A stretch of DNA of 33,923 nucleotides from Psammoneis japonica (lineage: Eukaryota), in contig QPGO01000390.1 of the NCBI GenBank assembly GCA_008632985.1, forward strand, positions 1-33,923, read 5' to 3'. This document shows positions 1 to 26,088 of the stretch, piece after piece (positions within the stretch are counted from its first letter, which is position 1; each line of letters begins with the position of its first letter). The position numbers were made by a program, and so were the translations under genes. The notes beneath the pieces were generated by a model. The model had not been told where the DNA came from. It worked only from the letters and a program-made list of their open reading frames with translations, and did no database searches.

Positions 1-2500
1 ATTCTGTGTGCAAGCTCTGCAGTGGGAAAATTTCATCAGTGTGTGTTTTTGTCTTCACTGTCAAACAAACACCAAAATTTGCAGTGCATTTTTTACACCT
101 GCCCATGCTCAAAGTTTTAGAAAATTGGCCTGCCCCACGCCAATCTTGAGGGGGGTCATTTGCCACTTTGTTCAGCTTGAATTCGGCCAAATGGCTCGTG
201 ATTTGCATGATTTTTTCTGAATTTGACCACAGTTCATCATGGCAAAAACATCAAGCCACAAGTCTGTGATGGAGGTGGGCCATCTGTCAACTCTCATTTG
301 TTTTACATTTGTTGTGTTTTAAAGGTCACACACTCATCAAATGTTTGAGGATGGACCACTGCATTTTGGGGAAATGCTGACATTGCCGTCATTCATCATT
401 CTTGTGCTTTGACCACTGTGTCTGATGCTCTCATTTTTGTGCACGATCAGGGGTGGATGCAAACAATTTTTGCACTCAAAAACAAAAACACTGCAAATGT
501 CCCCTTGTTCAAATGCAATGACAATTCCAGGACAAATGTGGGGATGACCCCCCTTGAGACATTTGCGAATGGCGCAGAAGAAAAAACATTGAAAGTTGTT
601 GAATGGATCGCCCAACAGTTGCACTGCAAAATGATGCAAAATTCCACAAAAGTAAAGTGGACATGCACGTGCATGACACACGGCGCAATCCAAAAAACTG
701 TCGACATCAGCACTTGTTTTCCATTGTTGAGATGGTGGATTTTTGGATTGTGTGCTTTGTGGCTGCACATGGGGTCATGCACAAACAACTCACCCCCCCC
801 TTGTTTCCCACACCTGACAAGGACAATCACATGATGCAAGCCCTGATCATTGCCACATTGTCAAAAATCCATGTCCAATGGCTGCAATCATTGGCTGGAA
901 TGTTTTGCATGGTCATTTGCAGCAGGAGCCTGGGAGCCTTCTTTTGAAGCCCTCATCTTGTGTGCACCTGAAGTGACAGAGGAGCTCATTCAATGCAAAT
1001 GATGGGCCCTTTGTTTTTCTGATGTCAAGCTTCTTCCCAAGACAAAATCCCTTTGTTGTTGTCTTTGTGGACTGCACCATGTGGTCACACAAACCAAGTT
1101 CTGTCTGCAGTCAAAGTTGTTGACAACCAGGCTCTCAGTTGCCCTCGTCAACTCCTGGAGCTTGTGCTCAGTTGTTGTTGCGCCATTGCACAAAACTGGG
1201 AGCTGTGTCATCTGCATCATCTGGCTGATTCTTGAAGTTCTCTTGTCAACAAAGCCTGTCACAGGACAGGAAAGTTGACAATGCATGTCTCTCCCCTTGG
1301 AGTCACATGAAACAGCAGACCCCCGCCTTTGTTTCCTCATGCCTCAAGACAGCGAGATCAATTTGTGAAACACAGGCAGGCCACCTCCTTGCACAACCAC
1401 CATCAATCCACATCAACTCTCCAAATCATCCAAAAAAGCATCTTCATTGCTTCAGCTCAACTCCCTCAAAAAAGCTGACAGTGCTGTTGGCCTCCTTTCT
1501 CTCCATGTCCTTGTTGAGGCTGATCACCACACAGAGAGGGCAGCTGCGGCAAAGCTTGAGAAGTGGGTCCACGTGCCTTGATTTGTTCCCAGCTTGGCAC
1601 ATGGCATCATGAGCATCTGGACAGGAGGCTGCAAAGAATGCTTCTTTGGACAGTCAATCTTGAAAATCCACACATGCCCATGCCTGGTGTTCTGTTTCTG
1701 CTTGGGGGGTTGCTTGCGTGGGCTGCAACGGTGCAGGTTGGCCCTGGAGGTGGGTGTGCAAGAGACCTCAATTGTGCTCCCTCCAGCACCTTCTTGAAAA
1801 TGCCATTGTTGACAGCACTGTTCCTTTCAAGATTGACAGCAGCAGCACGGGTTGCATGTTGCTTTCCTTTGGCCCAGCATTGCCAGGCCCAGGTGCAATC
1901 ATGCACTTGTTGATTTCCTTCAACTCTCATCCACACAGTTGGCCCATCCTTGAATTGGCGGTTTCCTCTGAGTTCAATGAAACAATTTGACCATTGAGGT
2001 GCCATTGTTCAAAGTCTTTGCAGACAAACAGAGAAGCCCAAGAACATTGTGGATGTCTTTCTCTCTAAAATTTTTGATCTTAACTCCATGTTCACACAGA
2101 CGATGAGACATCATGCACAGCCATCCAGCAAAAATGAAAACGTGCTGTTGCCAGGGGATTCCCATCTCTGAAGTGATTGTGACGTCACACGCAGAATCAC
2201 GTGCGCTCTGGCACAAAATCGAGTGATGATCACTCGACCCAATTCTCCTTTTGTCACACCAGGCATCACAGCTTTCTACAGAATTGTCATCCACTGGATT
2301 TCCGCTGCGTGATTTTTCCACATCGCTTGGTGCAAATGGGTTGAGCAGACTGCAGGCAACATGCAATCAACCGTTGCGTTGAGAAAACAGCCGTCAATGA
2401 ATGGACGTCTCTTCCACAAGTGCAACATTCTTTCCTTGCAAGGTCGTTTGTCAACAATCACTTGGCACATTTCTCCTCACAAAAAGTTAACAAAATTGTG
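1..2500. other. Unidentified degenerate, hypermutated sequence (probable repeat or gene relic)
   Basis: Both TA and CG are strongly depleted. Fragmentary minus-strand ORFs (447-839, 990-1340, 1607-2005) carry no motif I recognise. Confidence 0.35.
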
Positions 2501-2638
2501 GTTCTCAACACAACCGTTCATAAAAATTCACACAAAGTGTCTAAAAGAAGAAGACGATTGTACATTTAAGAGGATTCTTCTTGGTCTTCGTCATCAGAAT
2601 CACTGTCAGCCAAAGAGTTTTGAAGCTTTGATTTGAGG

Positions 2639-5424
2639 TCATTGAGGTCGCGCCTTTTTCTGAACGCAAATAGAGTCGAGATGTTCTTTGGTGACTTTCA
2701 TCTCTTTAAGGGCATCCTTCTTCACTTCAATGCTCTTCCCTGACAAACCGGTGTTTGGACAAACCAGCCGAATCAAGATCTTCAGCTCATCTCCCTTCAA
2801 CGTCTCGTGCGCACTGCACTGAGGCACAGTGGAGCGCAGTGCATCAAACTCATCGAGCACTTTCGATTGTTTGGCGATGTCAGCCTTCAGTTTCGTTTGC
2901 TCTGCCTCACCAACCTTGATCATCCTTGTCTTGGTGCGGCGCATGGCAACAATTGCATTCTCACCTTGTGCTGTCTTGACAACGGCTCCACGTCTCTTCT
3001 TTTTGGGCGGTTGCTCGGAAGCACCTGCTGCATCGGCAATCGCATCCTTTCGCTTGAAACCGGCAAGCACGTTGGACATCGTTGCATGCGTTGCGATGCT
3101 GACAGCATTTGCACCACTGCTGTTTACCTCTGCTTCAAAGCCGGCAATCAAGGCCACACATGGTTTCTCAATCATCTCTTTCAATTGCAAAAAATCCTGA
3201 AAAGAAAAGCTCTCACCAATTGTTTTCCCTTGCTCTTGTTGACACCAGACTCCAAACATTTCGTCGCGCTGTTCCGCAGCCTTCTGTTTTGCAGCTTCGA
3301 TTGATGCTGTCTGCTCTCTCTGTCTCTGTTGCCTTTTGTGGAGATGCTCTCTTCTGGTTGCAGCAGGATCTTTCAGAAATTTTTTGGGGTCGACGCGGCA
3401 GTTAGAAGCATCCAGCAAGTTGCTCTCGGCCACGATGCGCTCAGTCCCATCTTCCAGTGCCAGCTTCCAATTTTGATTGCCTTGGAGCGTGACAACTCCA
3501 TCAAAGGTTGCACCAGTGGGATCAAAAAATTGCACTTCAATGGCATCAATGAAAGGTTGCACCGAACACAGTGCCACTGCAGTCCAATCTCGCGCACGCT
3601 CCTCTTTCGTCTTTTCCACCGCACGAGGCAGTGATGCCGCATCAGGCAAGTGACATTGTACAAGTTGCATTGCCAGTTCTTCTTGTTTGCTTGTTGGCTC
3701 TGGTTTCTCACTCTTGCGCTCTTTGTCCTCTCTCCATTTTGCCAACATTGATTTTGCCACTGGCATCACGACATCCAGGTCATGCAGCAGCAGGTTGTCG
3801 TCGTCGTCGTCGTCGCAGCCCTCGCGGAGAATCTTTCTTGATCTCTCAGAAACGGCAATTCGGTTGTCAGGTGGGAGAGGCTCAATTTCCCACTCTCGTT
3901 TTTGTTGCTCTTGTGCTTGTTCTTCCTTTTCTCTTTGCGATTCTAGGGCGAGTTCGTGTGCGGTCCCCATTGTCTCTGGCACTTCCGTCCACGCAATGCA
4001 ATCAGGGTTGATTGGCTCGAGAGTCCGGTTTCCTTCCAGGCGCTTGTGCAGACATTGCTTCCTTTGGACAAGAGCTCAGCCTTCTCGGCTTCAAGGTGAG
4101 ATTTCCAAGCGGCGAGAAAAACTCGGTTTGTCAACCGCACTCCTTTTGCAAGACCGCTCTTGTGCCCAACCCTCTTTGCCTCTTCCTCGATCTTGGCATG
4201 CAGGCGTTTGTTGACACCTCGATCGTTTGGTTGCGTCCAGATGGATGTGTGAGATGGCAGAAAAAAAACAACAGACGTTGTGTTCCCAGAAACACTTGAG
4301 AGCAGCGTAGCACCAATGCGAGGCGTGTCCGTTGAGAAGCAGCATCGTGGCGTTCCTCATTCGTTCCTCGTCTGTCGTGTGGCTTGTTTTTCCTTGACCC
4401 TTGGGAAGGTTCTTGCAGTGATGAATGGCAAAATCGAGCATTGTGTCTTTCTCCATGCTTCCGTTTGTGGTGGTCCGGACATCAAAGCCGTGCGGGTTGT
4501 CGCTGAACTTGGCGTTGGGGTTGGGATTTGCTGGGGCGAGGCCGTCAAGATGCATTTCACCAACAGCAGTCTCGTCTTCTGGAGCATTGATGTGGTTGGA
4601 GTCATTGGTCTTCTTCTTGGATTTGGAGGCATGCACAAGGAACGGCGAGGCTCCTTCAATTTCTTGGCATGGAATTGCATTGATGCCTGTGGAGGCGGAA
4701 GGGCACAAGGCAAGTGCACTCAACAATTGTCCAGAGCAAGGCAGCAACAAGGATAAAGTGGCACCCCTTTGCTCACCATCTGCTCTAGAAGCAACACACA
4801 TGGCAAGATGATGGCTCATTTTCCCGTCACCCTCGGGAGTCCTCTGAAAAATCCGCAGCTTCTTCATCACCTCCTTGAACACTGGTGCTTTCTTGCGGCA
4901 TTTTGCAGTGTCCATTGCAACTTCATCCATGTTGCATTTTCTAAAAACCTCAAGCTTCTCAATGCAATCAACATCAATTTTACCTGCAGCATGGAGATGC
5001 TTCACAAAAGACTGCAACTTTGCAAAACATGCGTCCCGAACCTCTTTCGTCCCCTGCTCAGCACGAATTGGGTCCAAACTTGAAGCTGAAGCTAGTTTTG
5101 CTAGCTTTGGATGGCATTGGAGCATGGAGCACACAAAACAATCAGACACAGACGGCTTTTCACGCTCATCAATGAACTCATTTGTCAAGTCATTCACAAT
5201 CTCAAGAACAGTGTCCTTTGACACCCCGTGTCCCATCTGACCCAACCAGCAGCAAACTTCAACAACATGCTTCTCTTCGTCGTCAGCAAGAATCCCATTT
5301 CCCTTGTGCAAGGCAGTGATTGCCTCCTTTGCCTTCTTGTCTTTCACTCCAAAAAAGTTGCAAATGGCTTCTTGTGCTTTCTCCACTGAAGCTTTTTCTT
5401 GACAAAGATGACGAAGTCCACTTT
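2639..5424 (-). pseudogene. pogo/Tc1-mariner superfamily DDE transposase pseudogene (CENP-B-like HTH + DDE_1 + long charged C-terminus)
   Basis: Motifs in order: CNMDE (=YNMDE), ASRADG, NGSM, LLLNGHASH (=LLLDGHxS). After a frameshift in the A-run at ~4261-4268 come LPSHTSIWTQPND and AWKETGL; a second frameshift at ~4010 leads into ORF 2639-3982. Probable in-frame 90-nt GT-AG intron at 4776-4687. The N-terminus appears cut at the junction with the Penelope-like element. Confidence 0.85.
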
Positions 5425-5501
5425 TGCCATGGGGTTTACAAATGTACAACACACCTGTAGCACTGACAAGACTTCAGTTGTCTTGCCCAACTTGCAAAGC
5501 T
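5425..5501. repeat. 77-bp direct repeat, copy 1 (3' pseudo-LTR portion)
   Basis: TGCCATGGGGTTTACAAATGTACAAC...CTTGCAAAGCT matches 9357-9433 with 6 substitutions. Confidence 0.9.
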
Positions 5502-5547
5502 TTGACGACAACAAGCTTTCGCTTTCGCTTCATCAGTGCAGTTGGCA
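5484..5547 (-). ncRNA. Type I hammerhead ribozyme (extra A between A9 and G10.1)
   Basis: Minus strand reads ugccaac-ugca-CUGAUGA-a-gc(gaaa)gc-GAAA-gcuu..aagc-U-U-ugca-aguugggca. It has the conserved core boxes, a 2-bp stem II with GNRA loop, a 5-bp stem III and an extended stem I. Predicted cleavage is between 5497 and 5496. Confidence 0.75.
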
Positions 5548-5909
5548 TTTTTCCTTGCAAGCTAAAAAAGTCGAGATTGGCACTTTGAACGGTTCTGAGG
5601 GCGGCAGCTGCCGTGAGACCGTCAGGGAGATGCCAAGTGTGCATTTGCATGTGAAGCGCACAAAGCACGCTTGTCTTAGCCCAAAACTCCAGTGGAGAAA
5701 AAGTGGGAGTCCAGGTTTCAGGTGGTGTTCCTGAGCCCAGACACTGAGACAATAAAAAGAGACCAACTGCATGGTGGGTGGTGATTGGGGTTTGGTGTGA
5801 CCCCAATTCAAAAAAACTCAAATGGGCGCAAGCCGAAGTGCCGCAGGCACGGAAGGCAGCCCATTTGAGTTTTTTGCCGGAGGTGAGTCGTCGCGACGGC
5901 GTCGCCGAT

Positions 5910-8083
5910 TCAGTGCTCCGGTGTGAGCATCTCCATGTAATTTGATGCCCGCTGCCCTTCAGGTTCATTGAGGCATGTGTTCATGAGTGCATCTCTGAGG
6001 TTTGGTGGCCTGGAGTGTGCTGTCACGAACCTGCTGAATCCTGCACATCCTTCTAGAGTTGCTTTGTGGGCACGTCTAATGGATGCTCGGGGTGTTCCTC
6101 TTGGGTGATGTTCCCGGTGGAAGAACAAGGCTGAGGTGGGTTCGGCAGCGGCAGTGGAGGTGGGTTGCTGAGAGGGTCCGTCTGACCACTCTGCAGCTTC
6201 CATGAACAGCTTCTGGATGGTCTGCATGTTGTGTCCTCTTTGATGGAGGCGTGTGGCGAAGTTCTTTGCTGCGTTGATGCAGTCGCGAACGTCGGTGTTT
6301 TGCATCCAGAATCGTCGGAGGTTGCCATGCACAATGCTTTTCAACACTCCAGGTGCGTGTGCAGAGCTGGGTGGGATGTGTGGGAAAAGGTTCATTGGTT
6401 TTTGGCAGGTGCTGGCAGCCACTCGGTTGTCTGCTCCAATTCGGACATTTAAATCCAGGAAGACGCTTTGGTGGAGAGTGGGGAGGCAATCCATTGGAGG
6501 GGTCCTGAGTTGTTCAGTTCTTCTTTGAATTGCTCCCAAGTTTCGTCATTGTCTCCTTGTGCCATCCATGCACCAAGCATGTCGTCGATGAATCGTCCGC
6601 AGCAGCGGAGGTTTTCGGAGAACTGGGCTTGAAGCACTTGTCTTTCGTGGAGGGCCTTGTACAGGGCAGCGCACATGCAGGCTGTGCTCGTTCCCATTGC
6701 AGTTCCACTGGTTTGCAGCCAGCATGTGTCATCAAATTGGATGATGTTCCGGGTCATCACTGTCTTTAGGGTGGTGAGGAAGAATTGTTTTGGGAAGCCT
6801 GGGGGCATTTCATTTGGGCATTCCTTGAACCAGTCTTCAAAAACTCCAAGTGCATGGTTGGTGTCGATGTTGGCGCACATGCCAACGGCATCAACAGCAA
6901 ACAGTTTGGCGCCAGGTGGCAGCTCACCAAGTGCTCGTAGGTCGGACAAGACTTGATGTGAGTCTCGCATGTAGGACCGGGAGAGGGACAGCAGCTTTTT
7001 CATTTGTTTGTCAAGCCACTTCGAAAACATCTCATTGAAGCCACTTGCACAGCTCACGACAGGTCTTGTTTGCCAAGGGGTCTTGTGCACCTTAATCGTG
7101 ATGTAGAACAGTGGGAGACGGTGGGGCAGCTTGAAGCTGCGGGCAAAGTGGGTGCACTCTGCTGCGCTCAGATCGTGTTTTGCCGTGTTGCAGGCATTCA
7201 TGAGCTGGTGCTTGGTTTGTTGTAAGAGCTGGGTTTTTCTTGCTGGGGTGAGGCACTGGCAGTTTTGTTCGTTGAGAAGGTGGTCTTGCAGGGCTCTCGA
7301 CATGTGTGTCTTCCATTCCACAATGACAGGTCCGAGGTTTTTGTCACTCAGACAGACTGTAAAACGCGTGTCGTTCTTCAGGGCATGGAGCAGGCGGTGT
7401 TGTCTTGGGTTGAGGTTGTGCCATTTTCTGCCGGCCGCGGCTTGGTGGCTCATGCGGTCAATGCAGTTGGCAAAGTCCATCATTCGGAGTTCAACACTGC
7501 CTTCTTCAATTTGCGGCGGTTCCCAATGTGACTTGACGCACAATCCGGGGATGTGTCCATCATCGGTGGCAGGGTTTTCCGCATTGGCGATGAAGTGGCA
7601 CAGGCGGATGGAGCGTTGCAGCCGTTCTGTTCCATCTGCCTCCTTGGTTGAGGGTCGGGCTCGTTCTGTGCAGAACTTGTGTCCAAGGCCAAGGAGTGTT
7701 GCTAGACTGGGTGGTGGTTTTGTGGTCGTGCAAAGGTTGTGGTGGCCCAGGTCACTTGGGCGGCTGAAGCATTCGACTGGTTTTTGGTTGCCGAGGGCGG
7801 TGACAGCATTTTGCCAGGGAGTGCAGTTGGGGTTTGGCACAAAGCCGCAGGTGCGCAGGCAGCAGCTGTCGGATTGGGCGTTGGCGGTGTCAAGCGGCTG
7901 TTGGGCGTTTAAGCACGTGAGTTTCGCTTCCTTCGCTGCTTGTTGTTTCTTGATTCTTTTTGCCCGCCGTTGCGCGGTGCGCCTTGGTTTCCTTTTCCGT
8001 TTCTTTTTTGTTGGGAGGGCTTGTGGGTGCGCCATTGCTTCTTGCTTGGGGGACCGTTGTGCTTTGTTCCGGTGTTGCGGCAT
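5910..8083 (-). pseudogene. Penelope-like reverse transcriptase (ORF2), frameshifted near 6470
   Basis: DKNLG, KVHK..RPVVS, AVDAVGMCANI, QTSGTAMGT, GRFIDD, then FLDL, TCQKPMNLFPHIPPSSAH, RLHQRGH, HSRPPNLRD. Expected Tyr positions are occupied by Cys/His. Confidence 0.9.
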
Positions 8084-9341
8084 GGTGTTGTGGCATCTTT
8101 TCCGGCCGGCAGGGCTTTCCGGTCGCCCACATCGTTTTTTCGTTTCTGTCCTTTCTCTTGGTTTTGCTTTTGTTTCTTCACTGACTTTGCTGCATGCTTG
8201 GTGATGGCCGGTGGTTTTTGTTTGAATTTGTTGTCCACTGCTTGTTGCACAAGTTGCTGCAGAGTCGCTGGGGTTGCTGTCGGCTCTTGTTCCAGCGCGG
8301 TTGCTGTGGCCTGGGCGGCGGCTCGTTTCTCATGGGAGTTCCAGTGAGCCTTGACTTGTGCATCTGCTCAGCCAAGTTCATGCTCGTAGTTGATCTTGTT
8401 TTGGAGCGTCGTGGTCATCTCTTCGAAGGTGTTCTTGTAATTTAGCCACATTCTGATGCACTCGTAGATTCTCGTTTCTGAATCGGTGAATCTGCAGTCA
8501 GCTGGTTCGGCACGCGTGGTGTTCGTTGTGCCGGTGGCTGTTGCATCAGCACCTGCATTTGTAGTTTCAGCTGCTGCTGTTGTGGCGGCTGCTGTGGTTG
8601 GTGCTGCTTGGTTGTCTTCGGGTGCATCTGTGGTGAGGTGCAGCAGAATTTCTTGGAGAGTGCCTTCTCTCTGTGTTCTTGTGGGTGGGCAGTGAAGAAA
8701 GTGTCGGGTGGCAATTTTTTGGCGTGTCACAGTGGGCACAGGCCTCCCAGTTGTCGCCAGGTGTTCTTGGCAGCACCCTTTCCACGTGCCATGCAACAAA
8801 ACACGCAGTGTTCGAAGAGCTCAAGGCTGGCATGTGTGAATGTAGTTGCTCGCTCAGCTTTCGCTGTGTCGAGTTCACGTTCCGCCATTTTGTGCATGAG
8901 TTTCGCACCTTTCTCTTGGAAGTCCGAAAGTGGCTCTTGAAATTCACCAATGAGCTCCCCAGCTTTGGTGTCGTCGTTGAGCTTGTTGCCATGTTGCAGT
9001 TCAAGGTTCTCAAACCTTAGACTGCGAGGGACGAAGGGATTTTCTGGATCGCCGGTGAAGGCGGATGCGCTCTTCTCTCGAAGTTGTGCTTGAGTGCTGG
9101 CAGCGATCATGTGTGTCACCAGTGACTCGATGGCGTCCTGCAGTCCTGCTGGCTGCTTCTCAATCAATTCCCGGCATGGTTCGAGCATGTCTTTTTTGTC
9201 TTTTTTGCATTGCTCGGCTGCTGTTGGGGTTGCCTGCTGTGGTTGTTCTTGAGTGGCAAAGGTAACTGCACGCACCGCTGCCACGGTTTCGCTGTCTTTT
9301 GCAGGCGTGATGGGATTGGAAGCACTGGTGGTTGTCATCAT
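7909..9341 (-). pseudogene. Penelope-like element ORF1 (helical/coiled-coil, Lys-rich C-terminus), disrupted
   Basis: Chain of ORFs 8727-9341, 8368-8799 and 7909-8250. The last two are in frame across one TGA at 8368-8370. It overlaps the start of the RT ORF. Confidence 0.55.
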
Positions 9342-9356
9342 TCTTTGGACATGCAC

Positions 9357-9433
9357 TGCCACGGGGTTTGCAAATGTGCAACACACCTGTGGCACTGACA
9401 AGACTTCAGTTGTCTTGCCTGACTTGCAAAGCT
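9357..9433. repeat. 77-bp direct repeat, copy 2 (5' end of the Penelope-like element)
   Basis: Matches 5425-5501; all differences fall at pyrimidine-purine dinucleotides. Confidence 0.9.
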
Positions 9434-10022
9434 GCGCGATTGCAATTGACCAATTGCTGCTCCGCAGTGATGCAGTCGCCTGATTGCAATCTGATTGCTG
9501 CAGAAAACTTTGCAATTAGTTGACACTGGGATGAGAGATGGAGAGACCGGAGGGAAAGATTTTTCCCTCATCTGGAACTCGACAGCAAGCTTTACTGTGG
9601 CGATTTGAATGCTAATGCTCACATCTGTTAACAGATGGTAACATAAGTTGGTCGCGTTCTGATCAGAATTTCAGCACTAGAAAAATTACGTACAATTCTA
9701 CGTGATCACTTCACACCAAATTATCATTTCAGAGATGGGATGGAATCCCCTCTAGAGCTCGTTCGCTGCGAATCTTGAATCTTCATCAGATTGAAGATGC
9801 AGTTTCCATTCCGGGACGAGGCTATCTTGTTTCGCCTCCCCATCCACCTACTAGCCACAAACACAACACTGTCCGTGCGTTAATTAGCCGATGCTCCTTG
9901 AATCTAAATGCAGACAGTTTGCTCTCTTTTCTAGATTTTGCACGCGATCATACATCTCTTCCTGTCGAATCGGAAGCCTTGACGTTCATTGTTCATTCGG
10001 TGTGCGCCATTGTCAGAAGAGA

Positions 10023-11149: not shown

Positions 11150-14100
11150 TCATACCGGGCTGTCTTCTTCATTAGAGGACGTATCCGACAACGTAGTCGC
11201 CGACGACTGGATTTTAGGAGGGATGCGAAGGACTGCACACATGGGTCCAGATTCCTCTTCCAACATATCAGCACCAACCGATACCCAAGTTCCCTCATGA
11301 ATCAAACCCGAAACACGCGATGGACCAAAAATCATCTCTTGGTACACAACTGCATGACCCGTCAGAAAAGCCTCATCTACGATGGTCTTGTCTCTGATTG
11401 TAAGGTACGGCGTGTCGTACATGCGGAGTCCAATGTAAAGCAGGCGACCTTCAATGGTTGCTCCCAAGAAGCGTGCCACAGCGTTAAAAAGAGGGGTGCC
11501 ATTGCAAACACTCAAAAAGGACCACGTTTGCGAAGCGAATGCGTAGGTCATATAGACAGCTTTCAAAGGAGATGCCGGCCCAACCTTCCAGCCTTTTGCC
11601 TTTCCAAAAGCAAGAAAGCGCAAAACATTTAGGATGCACATCCACACACCAGTTTGAATCACAAGGACGGCAGCAAGGACAGGTACTGCAACGTAGACAT
11701 TTCTCGGTTTAAAGACTTTCGACCAGAGCTCGTACACTGGGATAAGACTCGCAAAAACCACTCCAAGCATGACTGCATACATGGAGAGGACAACCGCTTG
11801 CATTCGAAATCCACTGGATTTTGAATACAATGACGCTCGTTCGTCGAGCTGCTTCTGCGAGATACTGGCAGTGACATGCGTCATGGGTGCAATAATCTTA
11901 CGCTCTATGGTCACGCCAGTTTCCACATGCGCCTTGAAGGCAATGCTTGAATCTACCACCTTTGTCTGTTGAAGCATCCCGTCTTTCTCGACGTCAAATG
12001 AAACCATTGAGATAAACGAGCTCTTCACACTCACCAAGTCCACAGTGGAAGGAAGAAAATTACCAACTTCGACTGCGGAATTCATATCAATATCCATACC
12101 CATGAGCTTCAGGATTAAATTCCAGAGGAGCGAGGAGTGACTGGTAAGAGATAAAAGTAGAGGGATCATCGTCTGATGGTGGTAGTCCGCTGCCCACAGA
12201 GCGAACCTCCTCATCAAATTTGTTCTCTTTGGACCGGGGCGACGTTTGCCCACAAGAAGCCATTTGAGAAGAATGCTCTCGACAACGAGCAATACGCCAG
12301 CAGTGGCAATATACAAGAACCGATAAGTTAGTGGGGCGTAACGCCAATCTTGCGGAAGGCGGTCAGAGTAAAGCATTTGGCCAACAAGAAGCAATGCGAA
12401 GAAATTGTATATCTCCATCACAAACCATACAAACTTGAGAACTTCGAACTTCCATGAAAACGAATAAGTGGATTCTACAGCAAGACCGGAGTGAAAAGCA
12501 GGACTTCCCTCCGCATGAGTAAAGGGTGGTACAAATGCACCCTCCGCGACAGCGGCGCATCTTTCAACACGTGCCCCGTCACCAACAGAAGCTCCCGGAC
12601 CCACAAGTCCGAGAATGGCACAGTCTCTGCCAATATAGGTGGGACGGAAACGAAGAACAAGGTTCTCGTCGCTGTTCCAAATACCGAATCTCCTGCATCG
12701 GATTTGGTTTCCGACCTCAGAGTTGGCGCCAACGTTGACCAAATCAAACTCGCGGATGAATGAGTTGATTTTGATGGAGCGGTGGAGTTTTGCGCCAAGA
12801 AGGCGGTAGAAGAGCCATAGAACAAATGAATCTTGTAAGAAGCGCCCAACCCAAAACTCCCACAACGCGACATATCGATCAACGAACCACCAGCGATAGT
12901 ACGCGAGTGACATGACGCGCATCTCGCATTCCTTGTAGCGACCAATAACGAGCCACTTTGCGCAAACCACGGTAAGTGTGAATGAAAGCATGAAGCAAGG
13001 AACGGTGACTGGAAGCCACATCCATACTAACCAACGAGATCCAAACTCGAACATGATGTCAGTGTCATCGTTTGAAAGCCACTGGTACATGTGCCAAGCT
13101 GGAATGATCGATACAGAAAACATCAGCAGGAGCAAGGCAACTCCAATCGTCTGAAGGATGCCCATGATAGTCCACGACAGTTTGGTGGACAACATGCATG
13201 GGAGCTCAGGTAGCTGGGTCACGAATGGGGTCCCGCTGTTATCATGCACAAACGATCTAAGCATCGACGGCGTTCTATATACCTCAAAGCAATGAGCGGG
13301 CAAGGCCACATGGAAGGAGTCGCTTATGGCGTCACTAAGCTGAATTGACAACAAGGATGATAACCCCAGAGTTTCCCAATCATCTTCATCCCCAAATCCT
13401 TCTCCAACGACCGATGCGACAACGGAATCAAAATTGGGAGGCTCAGCCTTCTCTTCGGCGGCACTAGTTGGCATTGGTAAAGGTAGGCCATCCGCCTGCG
13501 ACTTTGAAGCCTCCCAATGCTCAAGGATGCTTTTACGTGACCAGCTGTTACTGATGCTCCTTTTCCTCGTCTCGACACGACGAAGTTTTCCGCTCGTGGT
13601 TTTTGGGACAGAGGACTGTCTGAGGATATATATGCACTCAATATCAACATCGTGGACATCACGAACAAGACTCCGCACGATGGTTGGCGTAAGCGCTGCC
13701 ATGGATTTGTCGACGCGCGCGGTGTCTCGAATCTCCAAAACGATCCCAGCCGTAGTAGACGACCATTGAAAAGCAACCGAAGACCCAGGTCGAACAATTG
13801 AAGGATACTCATTGTCCAAAGTGCGCTCAAGATCCGTAGGATAGATGTTTTTTCCGTTGACGATTATGAGCTCTTTTCTGCGCCCGCAAACATACAAAAG
13901 GCCATCGACAATCCGACCAATGTCTCCTGTTTTGAAATACTTGCGACCATCAATGACAAGAGCAGAGAAGCTCTGGTTTAGCTCAGGCTTTGCCCAGTAC
14001 CCAGCAGCCAGACTTGGAGAGGCAATGTAAATCTCGCCTTCACGGCCGTCCTCAAAAAACTCCTTGGAATGAGGGTCCACAATAACAAAATGAATCTTAA

Positions 14101-15271
14101 AGGCCAACGAGCGTTGAATCAAACCAACACTCACGCACCCATCAAGGACTCTGACTTCATTCCCATGCGCCGACGCCACATACAGGCAATTCTCAGCCAT
14201 ACCGTAGCTCGTAACGATCGCGGACTTGGGTATTCCAATGTCTTGTATTACCTGAAGCGTCGCTGGGGCGATTGGTTCTGCTCCGATATTTGCATGCAGG
14301 CTCGTAGAGCAATCCATGATTCAATTTTTTGCATTGAGCCTCTTGGCCAGGAGATTGTAGGCAAAGTTCGGAGCGCCGATGTGCGTCCCTTGGAACTGCT
14401 CAATAACATCGGCCCAGAGAAGCGGATTTCGAATGAAGTCTAAAGGCGAGAACGCCACGAGAGAAAAATTTCGATAGACGACCGAGAAGAGAAATCCACC
14501 GATCAGACCAAAGTCATGCACGGCAGGGAGCCAGGATATAATCTGAAAGTAATCACGCTTATGGAATCTGGCATTAGATGCGTCGAACAAACACCCGAGA
14601 TTGTATATGATTGCCCCATGGGTAATAACGACGCCTTTTGGGGCGCTTGTTGATCCCGATGAGTATTGGATGAAGGCGACCTCCTCTGGTAGAGCCTTGT
14701 AGTCAGTGGTCTCTGAATGTGTTTCATTTTTATCCTTCAAGTCAAGATTGTCCGTTGTAAGCCACTTGACTGACGTGGTATTGCCGAGAATAGCAGCGCC
14801 CTTGATGGCTCGCTTGAAGCTTACGGTCGTCAGTGCATATTCAGCCTCGGCGTCGGAGGCTTGTGCGTTGAACTGAGCAAATGAGTGCTTTGATTTGTTC
14901 TTTTGGGGGTTTGGTGGGTACACGCTACAGGGGATCACACCGACTTTGAAACACCCAAAAAGAGCCGCCAAGAAATCGACTCCAGGCAAGTATGCAATCA
15001 TCACCCGAGATCCAGCTTTCAAGCCATAATGCTTCAGCATACGCGCCACTGCATTGGCAGAATTCCACAGCTCACGATAAGTCAAAGTTTCGGCGACTTG
15101 GCACTTGGAGTCGACCCACGTAAGAAATTGATGATGAGGGTCTTCCTTCAAATTTCGATAAAGTATCTCTGGCAACGTAGACCCTTTGACACTCCAAAAT
15201 TGGTCATCGTTTTCGAAATCTGCTGCTGCTGCTTCCTCCTCGCATGCCGCGGTATTTTTGGGACTCCGCAT
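11150..15271 (-). CDS. NRPS-like protein: fatty acyl-AMP ligase + acyl carrier domain + Pls/TIGR02353-type membrane C-terminal region; one in-frame TGA at 14321-14323
   Basis: FIQYSSGSTSAPKGV, SWLPAVHDFGLI, GAEPI, SYGMAEN, TGDIG, GRRKELIIVNGKNIYP, PKTTSGKLRR. Carrier motif LGLSSL. Repeated TM + KWLxxG + LGAK + hexapeptide-like segments. ORFs 14321-15319 and 11150-14317 are in the same frame (NAKN*IMD). Confidence 0.85.
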
Positions 15272-15597
15272 CTCTGCAAAAGGCAAAAGGTTGCCGAACC
15301 TTACAAAATGACTTGTCAAAATTAACCACCGTATTACTTTTATCTTGTGTGATGAGGAGTTCCCTGTTATTCTTTGGCGATAGCTGCAGAGCTAAAAACG
15401 GTAACGCTATCTACTTTATAAGTGTCTGTAGTTGGACATTGAAACTCTTAAAAGTGGAACGCAGTGAAAAGCGAGTGATCGTCTAGATTATGAGCTACTT
15501 TCTCGTGGTGGACTGAAAATGTGGCGAGGAACAAGGAACAAGGAAACCGTTAGCCGATTGGCGATTCATGTGCCAACGGTTAACGGTTTCTTGTGCT

Positions 15598-16212
15598 GGA
15601 ACACTAACGAAAATGTCGCCAAAACGGAAAAATGAGACATTTTGTATTATCTTGCGACAATCAAGAAATAATGCATTCTCGTTAGCTCGGCGCATCCATA
15701 TATACATGCTTTGCTTTTAATTGACTCCGTAGAACAATCATTTATCGCCAGTTTGATGAGACATTTCTGACAATGTCGCCAAAATCGCCAGTGGCACTTA
15801 AGTAACTAGTTTATACAATATTATGCAATATTCATACATGAATAGGTCTTAGCAAAGGAAGACACATGGAGACAACGTGAGACAAAGTGACTTGATCTCA
15901 CTTTGTCTCAAGTTGTCTCACTTTGTCTCACGTTGTCTTCATGTGTCTTCCTTTGCCAAAACTTGTGCATGCATTCATTGCATGGCATGTTGCACAAACT
16001 AGTTGCTTGAGTGCCACTGGCAATTTTGGCAACATTGTCAGAAATGTCTCATCAAACTGGCAACAAATGATTGTTCTGCGGAGTCAATTGAAAGCAAAGC
16101 ATGCACGCAGATCTGCCGAGCTGGCCAGAGAGAATGCGTTGTTTCTTGATTGTCGCAAGATGATGCAAAATGTCTCAGTTTTCCATGTTGGCAACATTTG
16201 TGTCAGTGTTCC
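15598..16212. repeat. ~295-bp inverted repeat (arms 15598-15890 and 15918-16212); foldback/MITE-like or two head-to-head element ends
   Basis: The reverse complement of the left arm aligns end to end with the right arm. Four 10-bp TCTCA(C/A)(T/G)TTG units lie at 15896-15935. Confidence 0.9.
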
Positions 16213-19200
16213 TGACTGTTGGATGACATCAGCTTGAATGAGCTCTGCTTTTGAGCCACCCAGAAAAGATGGCAAAGACCAGTGGTTGGCTTTTGACAAG
16301 ATGAAGATGAAAGCGGAAAATGGAGCCACGAGATTTTGATGAAGGATTTGTTGTGGGTTAGAGGAAAAGCATGGGTGCAAAAACCTGATGGTGAAAAATA
16401 AAAGAAAAAAGGGGATGGTTTGTTTTGAACCTTGAATTGATTTTTGTGCCAACTCCATTTTGGATTGGGCAGAAGATGGTGGTGTGGCGCATGGATTGTC
16501 GCATCGACAAAGGCTCACAGCCAGGACCAATTGTTGTGCGTGTGCTCATGTGTCAGAAGAGCAGACAACTGGGCTTCGGCAAGTGGATCTTGATGGACAG
16601 CATGAAACTGTGTGCTCACATGACATGAGAACGGCAGGTGGGATGGATTGTGGCTCGGTGCTTCATTTTTGCAATGCTCGGACAGTGAAGACAAGATTTT
16701 CCAATTGTGAGATGACATGCGATCACGTGTTTGTCTGCCGTTGATGGTGGCAAAATTAAATGGTCCATGAAGGAACATGTCTTGATGATGAATGTGTGCC
16801 CATTGGGAGAAGACGGTGAGTCGTTTGTGTCACGTGTGCAGCTGGTTTCATTTGGGGGAGGTTTGAGCAGATGAAAGTTGTTGTGAAGGACAAATTGTCC
16901 ATTGAGCTCATGGCACTCTTTCCAATGTTGCTGATTCAGGGCATCAAATTGCACATCATGTGGGTGCCGTGCGAAAAAGACGACGCAGATTTTACCATCA
17001 GAGAAGGCGTTTGGATTTTCCACCATGGTTCATTTGAGATTCACTTGAACAAGATTCCACTCAGTGCGAGTTGTGCCTGGTGCTCAACATGCCACAAAGA
17101 ACAGTTTGTGCTTGCTCTGGATAATGCGGGCCATGAGCTGATTCAGATTTGGTGCCGAGTTGGCTGGTTGCAGTTGTGCTGTGCTGCAGGCACTCCGATG
17201 TTGAACTGAGGGCCAGTCGAGGCCGTGCTGTCATTTGTGCTTGACACATTGCCTTCGAGCACCTTGATGAATGCTTCATTTGCTGATGTTTTAAGATCAT
17301 CCTTGGTTGCTGGCAAGAATCCTTCTTTGGTGTGCACCCTGTTGAGCTCATCTTTTAGCTCAGCAAGAGCAGGAAAGTGTGCAGCAGATTCAATGCATGC
17401 CATGTTGACTGTTGACAGCAGTGATTGGGATGTTGGCACACTGCTCTTGCAATGGGAGTCAATGCCAGCCTCCAAAAATGGATGCTTCTTTTGATGCCTC
17501 TGTTGATTTGCCCACAAGCATTGTCCGGTCCTGTGTCAGTTGGAAATGGAATGAGTTCTGTGGGGCAGGGGGACACATGATGTGAAGCATGCTTTTTGTT
17601 TTCTGCATTTGTCTTGCAGTGATGGATGCAACAGGAAGCTCCTGGTGGCTTCTCGATGATCTTCCATGGGCCTGCATGGTGACACATGATTGCTGTTGAC
17701 ACACTTGCAATGCATTGCTTGATGTTCTTGGATGAGTGCTCGGAACACCTCCTGGCACTTTGGAAGCAAGTGGCGCAAGCGCTCGGCACAGTTTTTGACT
17801 GATTTTGATGTTGGTTGCAAGTTGACAAAATTGGAGTCCGTGTGGTTGATTGGAAATCGGCGTTCACGTCTGATGGCAACAAGAGATCAACTGATGTCTG
17901 TGCCCACTGCTGGGGCAGAGTTCCATGCACATGCTGAAAGCTGGGTGCCTTCCACAGCTGTGTGGACTGAGTCACGCTCATTGCAGAAAATGCACAAAGC
18001 TTTGTTGAGGAATGAATGGCATTGCTCTGTGAGGATTGGATCGTGATTTCCTCTGGATGCTTGATGCAGATTGAGTTGAAGGAGGTTGATGGCTTGGATG
18101 AACACTCCACAAAATTTTGAATCTTTGTCGATTGCTGTCTTGTGACATGGGCCATGGTTGAGTGGTGCTTTCATGATGGCTTTGCTGAATGACTCCGCAT
18201 TGACTTCACCACAGATTTCTTCTGATGCTGCAAAAGTGCTCATGCCATCGACAACATGCATGCAGCATCTCTCCCCTTGGAAGCCTTGTTGATGTCCGAC
18301 CATGTGTGCATCTGCATGAATTAATTTGAGCAGCTCGTTGATGGGAAAAGAGCACACTGGTTCCGATTTCTGTTGACATCGAGCGTTGGCCAGGGTCCAA
18401 CCTGGGCACTTGTTGATGATGAGGCCAGCAATGTGCTTGCACATGGTCAGCCAAAAGAGTCTCAATCAGATCCTGTGAAAGGTGTGGCAGATGCTGAAGT
18501 GGCTTCCAATGGGATTGGCATGAAATGCAACGAACATGATGTTGTGAAGGGATGATGGTGCGATTCGGAGTTTTGCGAAATTGCTGACTGAGTGGACGGA
18601 TTTACAGATGACAAGCATTTTGCCTTCGACAGTGATGTTGCCTGCTGCTTGCATTGGCTGACAACAGCAGCAATGGATCTTTTGTAACTCATCCTTGTTG
18701 ATCAAGGCCGGGTTGTTGATCATTTGGACCATCAGGTTTATCTCTGGGTTGCAAGAGCACTCCTGGATCCAGGTGTCTCTGCCAGGCAGTCGCGTCATTG
18801 TTGAACCATTGAGAAAGGCTTGCGCAGTGGCTGCAGGAGCGGTTCCCTGTGATGTGTCGATGAGTTCCGTGGATGACAGCCGGGTGTTGGTTGACTTGTC
18901 ATGGACAGCTTGCAGCATGGCATGGCTTGTCTTGCCTGGAATTCCATTGGTCAGTGGGTCAAGCTGTCAAGGATTGGTGCACATTTTATGAGTGATGTTC
19001 CTTTCAAGCCCCCAACAGGAGATGGACTCGTGTGCTGAGATGCAACGGATGGAGTCTTGGATTCCTCATCTTGAAAGAATGTTCCAGAGGCTTGATCAAA
19101 TGGGTTGGAGTTGTGCTGACCGATTGGTGGGGCGGGATGATCCACGTCGTAGATGGCTGTGCCACATGGATTTGATGGTGTCAGTCCTTTTTTGACCAAG

Positions 19201-19800
19201 CAACTGATGACTGGGGCGTCCAACTGCTTGGGTGGCTGATTGGGCTCCACCTTGTTGAACACACATCTGTCTTCCTCAACCTCTTTGGTTGCAAGGGCTG
19301 AGGTGAGCACGCGGCTCAAGGAAGTGGTCAATCCCGCCCACTTGTGACTCAGTGCTTTCCCACGGTGAAAATTGCGCAGGAATCCAACGATGACAAAAAC
19401 GGTCAGATGACTTCCGATGACAACAACATCAACTGCATGTAACTTTCATTCTTTGCTTGTCAATGAATGTGTTGGCAACTTGAAGTATTGCGTGCAATTG
19501 CTTCCCTGAACTGTGATGGCAGCTCCTGAACCATTTGAATTGTTCTGCTCAAAGATGCTTGCGTGTCGCCAAGCCAAGACAGTGTCACTTCAATGCTTGG
19601 GCGGGATGCATCCTCATGCCATGACCATCATGTCAGCTCAATCGTGGTGTCCCTTGGCTCCCTCAAGCGACTCGATTCTGATCCAAATTATGAACGCAAA
19701 GCTGCACATGACTGCCACATTTGGATCTGTCTCTGCTCTCTAACATGTGCTGCAGAGCCACCAGAGAGGTGGAGGCCCTGCAGCAGATGCTGCATCTCCT
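15900..19800. other. TpA-depleted hypermutated domain 2
   Basis: Abrupt loss of TA from ~15900, with TG/CA excess; TA returns at ~19820. Confidence 0.9.
16515..19331 (-). mobile_element. Degenerate Ty3/gypsy-like LTR-retrotransposon pol 3' part (H2C2 zinc finger + integrase core + C-terminal region)
   Basis: FHANPIGSH...TFHRI*LRLFW...KCPG zinc-finger region; IHADA, VVDGMSTFA, IDKDSKF, EQCHSFLNK, AWNSAP core. Many stops and frameshifts; no RT or LTR pair identified. Confidence 0.7.
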
Positions 19801-20208
19801 GCCTCCGGTCGTTCCGCCTCTCTCTACTCTATTGTGCGTCCAGTAGACCTCCGAGCGATAACCATAGTCTACTCTCTCTCTCTAGCTACTAGGCCCCACC
19901 GAGAGGCTAAAATAAAGACAATGCGTTGGCATGCATTGGATCGCAGATCTATCTGTCTGTTCTCGCTCGTCGGTTCTGAACATTAAAAACTCTTCGTCAC
20001 CGATTACCTGAAATGAAATTTCAAAAAAGAGACCCGGAAGATCGCGTTTTTTGACGCGATTGTTCGACGGATCTTTTGTGTCATCGCTCATCATCGGCTG
20101 TCCGCTGATGATTGCCAATAAAATTGCGGGGACAACAACAAACTATCCTACGACAACACTAGAGCTATTGAACCGAACCGTATCTCATTGCTAACTGCCT
20201 ATCAGAAC

Positions 20209-23655: not shown

Positions 23656-23899
23656 TGGTGATGGCTCTCTCTCTCTCTCAAGCAACTCTCATTGCCAAGA
23701 GGCCAAGATCAAAGTCTCGCTCGCTATTGCGAGACCTGAGATCTTCAATGCCGGTACAATCTGGAAAAAAAAAACCAAAAAATTGGGTGTCGCCACATGC
23801 AAGCAAGGAAAATCGCAGTGGCGGTCTGTCTGTACGATAATTTCTACGCATATTTTGTACTTTCGTCCGTCCATACCACCTTCCGTCCGCGCCGACCAA

Positions 23900-25400
23900 C
23901 CCGACTCCACGCCCATTTCAAACAATGTGGCTTCCATCAGCACGGGCGCAGCAACGGTTGCACAAGCTTTGAAACAGAAGATTGATGGCAGGAAAGAAAG
24001 CGACATCTTTTTGAAAGATTTTTATGTTCCTTCAGGTGAGCTGCACTTTGCTGCCAAGTAAAATGAAGCCAGGGATGTTTGGTGAGTGAAAAGAAAAGAA
24101 CTTGTTGACCAGATGAGAGAGCCAACACTCCCTCCTTGTCATGGTGTGCAGCACAAGAAAAAGCCATCAGCGGTTCTGTCTCACCACTGTGATTTCTCAA
24201 CATAAAAGTCTCTGTTTACAGTGTGATGAAGGAGCAGAGAAGCATCAGGCCACTGTGCCCACACCAGACGGAGCTCTCACACCAGCTGGGATGACTTTGA
24301 GCAGATGCTCGCCGAGCCCTTTGGTGGAGCCACAGGTGGTCATGTGCATGTTGCAGAAAATGTTCTAGATTTGCTCTCAAAATCTCTTTGCAACATTTGA
24401 TGAGTGATGAGAACAATGAAAAAAAGCACTTTTTACAAGTGCCATTTGTGAGAGCCTCTCCAAAATGGGGAGCTGACAAATGGAGCCCGTGACAAGGACA
24501 CGACTCTCATTGGGAGGTGACAGTTGTGGTTGTTCCTGATGTGTTCTCTGTGCACCAATCCAAGGATCAAGAAGTTGGCAACACACCAGCATCAGCAGTG
24601 GAAGCAAAAGACAGCCACAATCTTGGTTGACTCTGAACATGGTTGGGGATGTCCATTCAGATGATCAGAGCCATGTTGGTCACCCATTTGTGCAGAGCTC
24701 TTTGGCTGTGTGATTGACAAGAAAGTTGGTTGCGGGGTGCTGCACTCAGCAAGCAAGACTTTCTTTGTTTGTTTTGATGGGAAGGTTGTTGCCTGTCTGT
24801 GAAAGCAACCTGGCATGCATGGCACACGACGTGTGAGCAACGTCACCTCACAGCTTGGGCACTGTTCTTCTGAGCTGCTGAGTGAGATGCACATGGGACA
24901 AGAGGCAAAGAATTCTTGAAAGATTGGTGTGACCACACACCATTGCAGCATCCAAAGACCCAAACACAAAGCAGAGCAGCACATGTCCCAACTTGAGACA
25001 GTGGCAACGATGATGACCAGGGTGACAACACCGATGGCGGCAATGGAGATGAGAATGAAAACAACAGAGCTGAAAGCACTGGGTCCAACAGGTGACAAAG
25101 AACAACCGCCAGGGTCTTTGTTTGTCACAATGCATTCCTGGGAAATGCTTCAAGACACACAAAAAGGCGAGTGGGGCATCCAAAAGAGTCACATCGATTT
25201 GATGGCAATGAGCTTCAAGAGACAGCTTCACCAAATCTTGAGAGAATGGAGACCCCAAAGTTGATCTTTGTTGCTTATTTTGAGTTTGAAAAGCAGGACT
25301 TTTTCCCTTGTGACCCTTTGAGGATTTACGCGACAAACGGCATTTAGCCACCGGTCGCAATGGTGACGTCTTTGTGGTGTGTGTCAAAGGCAAAAAGCAC
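23900..25400. other. TpA-depleted hypermutated domain 3, unidentified relic
   Basis: No TA found by eye in ~24440-25270; broken ORFs; no recognised motif. Confidence 0.8.
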
Positions 25401-26088
25401 GCGGTGAAGAAGTTTGATTTGAGCAGAAATTACAAGTCCTGCGAGAGAGAGTGAGAGGTTCTCGCCTACAAAGTTCTCCGCGATGTTTGGGGCAAGTGTG
25501 TTCCCTCCCTCGAGTGCTTTAGTGCCTCTGTCTCCGGCAAAGTTCGATTCTTGGTAATGACACTGGGTCGTGAACCAAAGAATGTTCTATTGCGTACATG
25601 TCGAACGTTGATGGGTAAATTGGAGGAAGAATACGGATTCAGCCATCTCGACAATGACTGCAGGCGAAATTGTATTAAGTGAACGAAAGGATAAAATGTT
25701 AGTTGACTTTGAATCCTGGGAAGATACATCTGCTGTTGACTACGCTTGAGATGGCCCCTCGTCATCTAGCTATGGGCTACGCCGATGCCGTGGACTTGCG
25801 GGAGCCTTTGTTTGCGATAAAGACAGTACAGTACAGTGCAGAATTCAGAGAGAAAGCGCGGATTTGTAAACTTTTTTTGCTTAAAATCATCGGTACGTGT
25901 ACAAATCGATTGTCGCCGCTGTAAACAAGTGGTGCGGTAAGGGATACCTGAACATTTCGAAAAGCGTGTAAGATGTTTTTACGGAGGAAGCTTCATTCAT
26001 CAAACGATCCGGTGCTATACCTTGTGTCCAGGTTTCAATGCGCAACCGATACAACATCGTTTCCTCTCCTGTACGGTCTCCTTTCTCC

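Follow-up and report, generated by a model that had tools for sequence, protein, structure and literature searches.

The DNA analysed here, called the window throughout, is a stretch of 33,923 nucleotides from Psammoneis japonica (positions 1 to 33,923 of contig QPGO01000390.1). Within it, at 15598-16212, lies an imperfect palindrome whose two arms are in strikingly different states. The left arm carries TA dinucleotides at about the level of ordinary DNA, whereas the right arm, the same sequence in inverted orientation, has almost none, and the edge of a long TA-free domain runs through the centre. I propose that the right arm lost its TA by hypermutation in place, limited to a chromatin domain, and that the left arm was spared by lying beyond the edge of that domain. 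I hold this to be the best reading of the half-mutated palindrome, with slightly better than even confidence.

The palindrome is evident by several routes. A repeat search finds three collinear pairs of arms, of 117, 83, and 57 nt, with complementarities of 91, 87, and 88%. A blastn search of the window against itself matches 15598-16212 to 16212-15598 at 81% over 630 columns. The single strand folds at -242 kcal/mol, compared with -80 +/- 4 for 20 shuffled sequences (z = -38). The motif GAGACA is concentrated here, with 9 of its 32 sites in the window falling within the palindrome: four on the plus strand in the left arm and five on the minus strand in the centre and right arm.

The differences between the arms are far from random. 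The original prediction gave these coordinates, counted 22 TA in one arm and a single TA in the other, and listed examples of the changes, all of which is borne out by an alignment of the arms (binomial p = 6e-6 for the 22-versus-1 split). Opposite the 22 TA of the left arm, the right arm reads TG 8 times, CA 11 times, and CG, TA, and a gap once each, so that 19 of the 22 have become TG or CA or, read the other way, derive from them. Nowhere in the whole arm alignment does a TA in the right arm stand opposite a TG or CA in the left. The 8 TA>TG and 11 TA>CA differences mean that both strands of the right arm are altered. CG is affected as well: the 12 CG of the left arm appear in the right arm as TG (5), CA (2), or unchanged (5). 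Counted by bases, the arms differ at 21 of 43 positions within TA and 7 of 24 within CG, compared with 12 of the remaining 222; in Fisher tests with these last as the reference, p is 1.8e-11 for TA and 8e-4 for CG. Sorted by type of change, A>G falls in TpA in 9 of 9 cases, T>C falls in TpA in 12 of 15, and C>T falls in CpG in 5 of 6. It had also been claimed that there are few other differences. This is fair as regards substitutions, which amount to 5.4% of the bases outside TA and CG, but it passes over several small indels and two extra 10-bp units at the centre. The sole TA kept in the right arm, at 16000, lies in the context CTAG.

Each arm resembles its own flank in both measures. The left arm has observed/expected ratios of 0.77 for TA and 1.18 for CG, and the adjoining gene region 0.56 and 0.96; the right arm has 0.04 and 0.43, and the adjoining TA-free domain 0.07 and 0.42. 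On the left side TA occurs as far as 15850, after which it is met at 16000, 16359, and 16399. The inner 38 bases of both arms contain no TA, and the edge of the domain can therefore be placed only to 15851-15955. That is in accord with the claim that the boundary passes through the centre of the palindrome.

The domain that begins there, domain B, is one of three in the window (Table 1). Within them TA is found 0-6 times per 500 bp, where 20-42 would be expected, and TG and CA together number 81-121, where the expectation is about 61-67. Over 16213-19600 of domain B the observed/expected ratios are 0.07 for TA and 0.42 for CG. At a resolution of 100 bp the edges of the domains are sharp. Domains B and C, like the first 2 kb of domain A, are low in CpG as well. 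The TA sites that survive in the domains are not a random sample: ATAB (ATAG, ATAC, ATAT) makes up 2 of 77, compared with 299 of 778 in normal DNA, while TTAA, CTAA, CTAG, and GTAA are enriched. This hints at a possible preference of the mutator for flanking bases, a lead only, considering that the baseline is gene-rich, coding-biased DNA. On the plus strand of domain B (15951-19600) TG exceeds CA, 509 to 302, with a GC skew of +0.10 to +0.28. Neither domain C nor the first 2 kb shows this excess, and it points the opposite way to the ratio of tyrosine replacements described below, so I draw no conclusion regarding strand bias.

Was TA lost from these domains or gained outside of them? The proteins once encoded within the domains provide the answer. 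Remnants of a reverse transcriptase and of an integrase were detected there through searches for homologues and not through Pfam, which, applied to the 77 open frames of at least 90 amino acids in the TA-free domains, returned nothing credible (the best E-value, 0.0027, fell short of the cut-off). In domain A, an open frame at 6452-8329 (minus strand) has 123 homologues, which carry PF28514 and PF26215; its motifs give it the look of a Penelope-like reverse transcriptase. In domain B, an integrase open frame at 17890-18465 (minus strand) has 330 homologues, with E-values down to 4e-42. Integrase_H2C2 was found in 6 of the 11 of these that were scanned, and 3 of the 6 are polyproteins that also possess RVT_1 and RNase H.

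Tyrosine, encoded by TAY, has nearly vanished from both proteins. The reverse transcriptase has 11 columns in which at least 70% of 9 homologues have tyrosine, and here the window protein has cysteine in 5, histidine in 2, tyrosine in 3, and lysine in 1. Other conserved columns are kept (phenylalanine 15 of 17, tryptophan 7 of 7, leucine 27 of 30), those of cysteine and histidine among them. Tyrosine makes up 0.5% of the window protein, compared with 2.9-4.7% of the homologues. The integrase, from the domain into which the right arm runs, lacks tyrosine altogether (3.3-5.8% in 13 homologues), and its 7 tyrosine columns have become cysteine (4), histidine (2), and phenylalanine (1). Over the two proteins there are 9 changes of tyrosine to cysteine and 4 of tyrosine to histidine, so both strands were affected. 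A change from TAY to TGY or CAY is exactly a change from TpA to TpG or CpA, and the TA-free state is therefore derived, through loss of TA. This supports the view that the right arm is the mutated one and that the left arm is in the unmutated state. The left arm had been called pristine: its TA and CG are indeed like those of the gene flank, but the term holds only relative to the other arm, since the outgroups available are for proteins of the domains. Among 80 metagenome relatives of the integrase, all have TA at 0.48-0.96 of expectation, so the depletion belongs to the host and not to the element family.

Table 1. Features of the window and their positions
Feature	Position	Strand	Remarks
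TA-free domain A	1..9517		55 TA in 9520 bp; runs off the left end of the window
Possible pogo-like DDE_1 transposase remnant	4094-5473	-	In domain A; lead only
Reverse transcriptase remnant, Penelope-like in look	5865-7975	-	In domain A; homology with one frameshift
AMP-ligase host gene beside the left arm	11150..15391	-	Two adjoining open frames; AMP-binding, DIP2-like AMP, and PP-binding domains; TA and CG normal
Left arm of palindrome	15598..15890	+	Unmutated state: 22 TA, 12 CG, TA observed/expected 0.77
TA-free, CpG-poor domain B	15851..19824		16 TA in 3650 bp (15951-19600); TG+CA enriched
10-bp phased repeats with GAGACA	15869..15948		Face one another across the palindrome centre
Palindrome centre	15891..15917		7-bp spacer CTTGATC (15891-15897), then two 10-bp units extra, on the right side only
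Right arm of palindrome	15918..16212	-	Hypermutated state: 1 TA, 6 CG, TA observed/expected 0.04
Ty3/gypsy-type integrase remnant, frameshifted	16548..19163	-	In domain B; H2C2 zinc finger, core, and C-terminal region
Right edge of domain B, differing between window and run X1	19728..19784		TG/CA in window, TA in X1 at 19771, 19780, and 19784
TA-free domain C	23875..25430		End approximate (~25430); 6 TA in 23900-25270; about single copy in run X1

Run X1 in Table 1 is a public sequencing run, used in the form of its Logan contigs. It may come from a different strain, from a second haplotype, or from the very sample that yielded the window, and the comparison with it covers 40 of 159 differences from the window and 16 of 339 contig pieces. 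X1 contigs reproduce the TA-free stretches with 0-13 differences per contig, which makes an artefact of one assembly unlikely, though X1 is perhaps not independent. Domains A, B, and C are each present in about a single copy in X1 at 90% identity or higher (depth 34-97). Among the listed differences inside domain B, 8 of 13 are at CpG. The two sources also disagree at the right edge of that domain. Three clean sites within 14 bp, in the last 100 bases of the domain, read TA in X1 and TG or CA in the window, and there is an adjacent double difference at 19728-19729 (TG in the window, CA in X1). Normal TA density resumes in the window at 19825. This edge difference fits a process that acts on integrated DNA, creeps outward, and has been recent.

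The positions of the edges are also informative. The domains are separated by ordinary genes whose TA and CG are normal, including a ligase with AMP-binding and carrier domains, a FAST/RAP protein, and a WD40 protein. The named homologues of the WD40 gene are all from diatoms (40-51% identity), and the best named homologues of the ligase are from diatoms as well. The collection searched contains no nearly identical protein, which points to a diatom or a near relative as the source, and not to B. natans. Each of the five domain edges lies on the upstream side of a gene, 220-580 bp from its first ATG (9891, 15271, 20209, 23655, and 25938), and all five genes point away from the domains. The left arm sits 327-619 bp upstream of the first ATG of the ligase gene (15271), a piece of repeat DNA within the spared zone, and the ligase gene looks active. 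Directly left of the palindrome, 15500-15597 is likewise repeated in X1 (bin depth 134). It contains a run of (AGGAACA)n and a short inverted repeat (GAAACCGTTA...TAACGGTTTC), and its TA content is normal: a second piece of repeat DNA beside the gene that escaped hypermutation.

What are the arms? Integrase homology runs from 19163 down to 16548 and is followed by about 640 non-coding bases ending at the centre of the palindrome. The right arm (16212-15918) is the last 300 of these, where the 3' long terminal repeat (LTR) would be. No homology to reverse transcriptase or RNase H was found upstream of the integrase in the window, which suggests that the 5' part of the element is missing. The arms are thus probably the terminal sequence, about 300 bp in length, of a Ty3/gypsy-type retroelement, presumably its LTR, and I infer that the left arm would repeat the end of the element on its right as a solo copy in inverted orientation. 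Of the 36 metagenome loci of relatives that are at least 4.4 kb long, 9 carry direct repeats of 123-278 bp at their termini, in units of about 9 kb, which fits LTR-type or tandem units. The one relative locus aligned (L022) did not fix the length of the LTR, and an exact 24-nt pattern taken from the arm had no match in the metagenome collection. In X1 the arm sequence is multi-copy, with a summed depth of 375 over the palindrome bin compared with about 55 beside it, and one X1 contig joins 15796 to 15948 in opposite strands. A search of the whole window against Rfam, with E-values up to 1, gave no match, hence no hammerhead or other known RNA in the arms.

I propose, then, that TpA would be converted to TpG or CpA almost to completion within domains of dead mobile elements, by T:A to C:G transitions on either strand, and that CpG would decay to TpG or CpA within the same domains. 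The mutations would occur in place, on integrated DNA. What aims them would be the state of the domain, most probably that of silenced and methylated chromatin, rather than similarity of sequence. A domain would end where it meets promoter-proximal active chromatin, a few hundred bases upstream of a gene. If one such edge happened to fall at the junction of two copies of a repeat, then one copy would become saturated with mutations and the other would remain untouched. Both strands are hit wherever this can be tested, which excludes a single-stranded RNA or cDNA intermediate. Homology 30 bp away did not spread the process, which argues against aiming by small RNAs or by pairing. The original prediction offered two reasons for the escape of the left arm, shelter by the neighbouring promoter or a younger insertion. 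The positions of the edges and the difference between the window and X1 at one of them favour protection of the left arm by its position. Since TpA is self-complementary, A>G and T>C cannot be distinguished. A possible agent is an enzyme that deaminates adenine in DNA at TpA, as has been proposed for the chlorarachniophyte Bigelowiella natans; as an alternative of my own, a thymine-modifying enzyme may be responsible, giving the same products. A larger claim would be that diatoms, or a lineage near them, run a defence that erases TpA almost completely from silenced foreign DNA, aimed by position in chromatin rather than by homology, with an edge of less than about 100 bp, and that it is the same system as that of B. 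natans. I offer this tentatively, at somewhat less than an even chance.

A number of observations weigh against these ideas. The state of the domain is read from CpG decay. In most of domain A (2001-9520) TA has been lost, with 50 left in 7520 bp, but the depletion of CpG is mild (324, with about 485 expected). With TpA gone and much CpG kept, loss of TpA needs no CpG decay, and the two processes are not strictly coupled. The 80 relatives of the integrase were fetched with two peptides, one of which contains tyrosine, and the set is thereby biased against hypermutated copies. Regarding the arms as LTRs, neither blastn nor a transition-tolerant Smith-Waterman search found a second, direct copy of the arm in the window (best off-target score of the latter 38, with 35-42 for shuffled queries), although this could reflect the lost 5' part of the element. 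The ends of the arm are not TG...CA but read GGAAC...AGTGA, and inspection by eye of the palindrome revealed no convincing target-site duplication. (A 4-bp CTTG was considered and set aside as chance: its left copy would start at 15594, four bases beyond the homology of the arms.) The 16 X1 contig pieces listed, out of 339, include none that spans 15493-16288, and so lend the junction no support of their own. Three X1 contigs diverge after 15589, but they do not represent an empty site joined to the far side of domain B, since their continuation is absent from the window. Finally, the coincidence of domain edge and repeat junction is explained equally well by a later arrival of the left arm.

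Such a late arrival would mean that a second copy of the family, or of its terminal repeat, landed head-to-head on an element already mutated, once the mutating episode was over, and escaped exposure from then on. In X1 the arm family is present in multiple copies (375 versus about 55), which may include unmutated donors; outside TA and CG the arms differ at 5.4% of bases, and also by indels, as separate members of a family would; and the process is episodic in B. natans, seen in 11 of 15 lines according to the preprint on that organism. Against this, the process was seemingly at work recently at the other edge of domain B, yet all 22 TA of the left arm stand. CpG in the left arm has been kept too (observed/expected 1.18). 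It is an extra coincidence that an insertion should exactly abut the end of an older copy, and no target-site duplication is seen. I consider a younger left arm unlikely, though it deserves a serious hearing. RIP (repeat-induced point mutation) requires a minimum length of repeat, and a similar trigger, dependent on homology, might have mutated long elements throughout and passed over a 300-bp solo copy as too short. This bears on the original claim that homology alone does not trigger mutation of both partners, which fits the data, with the reservation that a homology-dependent process having a threshold of length would spare such a copy as well. Everything identified in the TA-free domains comes from mobile elements, and the right arm belongs to a unit of at least 3.7 kb while the left arm is a 300-bp fragment. 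Nevertheless, the hypermutated giant-virus region of B. natans is described as single copy, domain C has no recognizable repeat or mobile-element gene, and the edges follow distance to genes. That domains A, B, and C are about single copy in X1 also counts against a threshold, though heavy mutation would itself produce that result. On balance a trigger of this sort is improbable.

Still less can be said for the possibility that the element was edited as RNA or cDNA, by an enzyme like ADAR or APOBEC, and inserted in mutated form, so that the edge of the domain is merely the end of the insertion. The edge does coincide with the inferred end of the element, and ADAR is reported to prefer a 5' U (bioRxiv 10.64898/2026.01.13.699255). 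However, changes on one strand are predicted, and what is found is 8 TG with 11 CA in the arm and 9 tyrosine to cysteine with 4 tyrosine to histidine in the proteins. A possible DNA transposon remnant and the single-copy domain C are affected too, and at a fixed locus the window and X1 disagree over one edge. I regard editing before integration as very improbable. The least credible possibilities, to my mind, are that classical RIP, turning CpA to TpA, made the TA of the left arm from an original TA-free sequence, or that the palindrome is an artefact of assembly. By themselves differences between TA and TG or CA are symmetric, and the centre is unbridged among the listed X1 contigs. But protein outgroups show that TA was lost in the TA-free domains, the left arm is richer than the right in CG, which RIP cannot create, and its level of TA is in line with that of the surrounding normal DNA. 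A fold-back artefact would be a perfect palindrome, in place of the 40 patterned substitutions and the indels found here, with unique sequence on both sides; and X1 contigs reproduce the TA-free domains with 0-13 differences per contig, with the proviso that X1 is perhaps the window's own sample.

Some further features of the window deserve mention. A 77-bp direct repeat (92% identity), at 5425-5501 and 9357-9433, flanks the Penelope-like reverse transcriptase remnant in domain A. The stretch at about 9431-9528 is present in very high copy in X1, with a summed depth of 1076 versus about 55; six X1 contigs have their start at 9431 and six their end at 9528. This stretch may be a terminal repeat of the Penelope-like element or a short repeat in its own right. 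Because TAA and TAG are lost from the domains, TGA is the one stop codon left, and as a result the domains are full of long, overlapping open frames on both strands, e.g., of 626, 478, and 460 codons. Leaving aside the mobile-element remnants, none of these frames is a gene, and such spurious frames can mislead gene prediction. A Pfam scan of the open frames of domain C found no recognizable repeat or mobile-element gene. The gene for the FAST/RAP-domain protein (21229-23688, minus strand) contains about 11 tandem copies of a 111-bp (37-residue) unit at 21805-23028, with 80-88% identity, and Pfam DUF1601, a 37-residue repeat, matches these units. There are single N bases at 27849 and 29491, one of them inside the frame of the WD40 gene.

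Why should half a palindrome matter? The TpA signature here extends a kind of change that has been described once to a new major lineage, where it is far closer to saturation. Diatoms are a different and ecologically dominant lineage, and their inclusion would widen the phenomenon to a possibly widespread defence of eukaryotic genomes. If true, it would be an old defence, common to the SAR group (stramenopiles, alveolates, and Rhizaria), that resembles RIP but has the opposite chemistry (T:A to C:G), by means of a DNA base-modifying enzyme specific for TpA. What the palindrome adds to the preprint on B. natans is a homologous sequence about 30 bp away, across the edge of a domain, that met the opposite fate. 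As a natural control it gives both the direction and the spectrum of the process without recourse to an outgroup. It argues against simple targeting guided by homology, whether through small RNAs or pairing of the RIP type, and it marks a precise place to look for a chromatin boundary.

It remains to compare the process with those already known. RIP, in Neurospora and other fungi, changes C to T, turning CpA to TpA, so that TA is enriched, and it hits both copies of a repeat. What is seen here resembles RIP in that dense transitions with a preference for a dinucleotide wreck mobile elements in place, within sharp limits. It differs in that TA is destroyed and one of two adjacent homologous copies is untouched. 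Creation of TpA from CpA is not what the proteins record, with tyrosine changed to cysteine or histidine at 7 of 11 columns in one and 6 of 7 in the other, nor are both members of the repeat mutated (left arm TA 0.77 and CG 1.18, right arm 0.04 and 0.43). The original prediction was thus right to set the process apart from classical RIP: it runs from T:A to C:G at TpA, the reverse of CpA to TpA. Editing by ADAR or APOBEC acts on one strand of an RNA or cDNA intermediate. It shares with the present case clustered transitions and a preference for certain neighbours, but here both strands of integrated DNA are changed and the affected DNA extends beyond retroelements. As a structure, the palindrome is like inverted pairs of LTRs or foldback elements in having long inverted arms, phased 10-bp sub-repeats near the junction, and a multi-copy family; unlike them, it shows no target-site duplication or TG...CA ends.

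Decay of CpG driven by methylation would account for the CG lost from TA-free DNA, including 7 of the 12 CG in the right arm and the low ratio of 0.42 in domain B, but it accounts for the CpG part only. No methylation pathway is known to remove TpA. Methylation of transposons at CG is described as established in diatoms, through DNMT5a (PMC9998398).

The closest counterpart is that in B. natans. The literature searched contained a TpA signature of this kind in a single preprint, from 2026, and no report of one in diatoms was found there. Mettrop et al. (bioRxiv 10.64898/2026.01.13.699255) report that in mutation-accumulation lines of B. natans, A>G or T>C changes, all at TpA, accounted for 230 of the 231 mutations found in an integrated giant virus and a virophage. 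The signature appeared de novo in viral DNA integrated as a single copy, in some lines (11 of 15) and not in others. They further describe 124 clusters in that genome that are depleted in TpA and enriched in CpA and TpG, with reverse transcriptase and DDE domains over-represented. An ADAT2-like DNA adenine deaminase is put forward there as a hypothesis and is not shown. The similarities to the window are plain: a nearly exclusive change of TpA to TpG or CpA, on both strands, in kilobase-scale domains of foreign DNA, with reverse transcriptase and DDE (here a lead only) in the depleted regions. There are differences as well. B. natans is a rhizarian, whereas the host of the window is diatom-like, a stramenopile. 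The evidence there comes from de novo mutations in lines, and here it is comparative. The targets here are transposon remnants lying between genes, accompanied by CpG decay. And where the giant-virus insert of B. natans is reported to retain TA at 0.45 of expectation, the TA-free DNA of the window, at 0.04-0.07, is near saturation.

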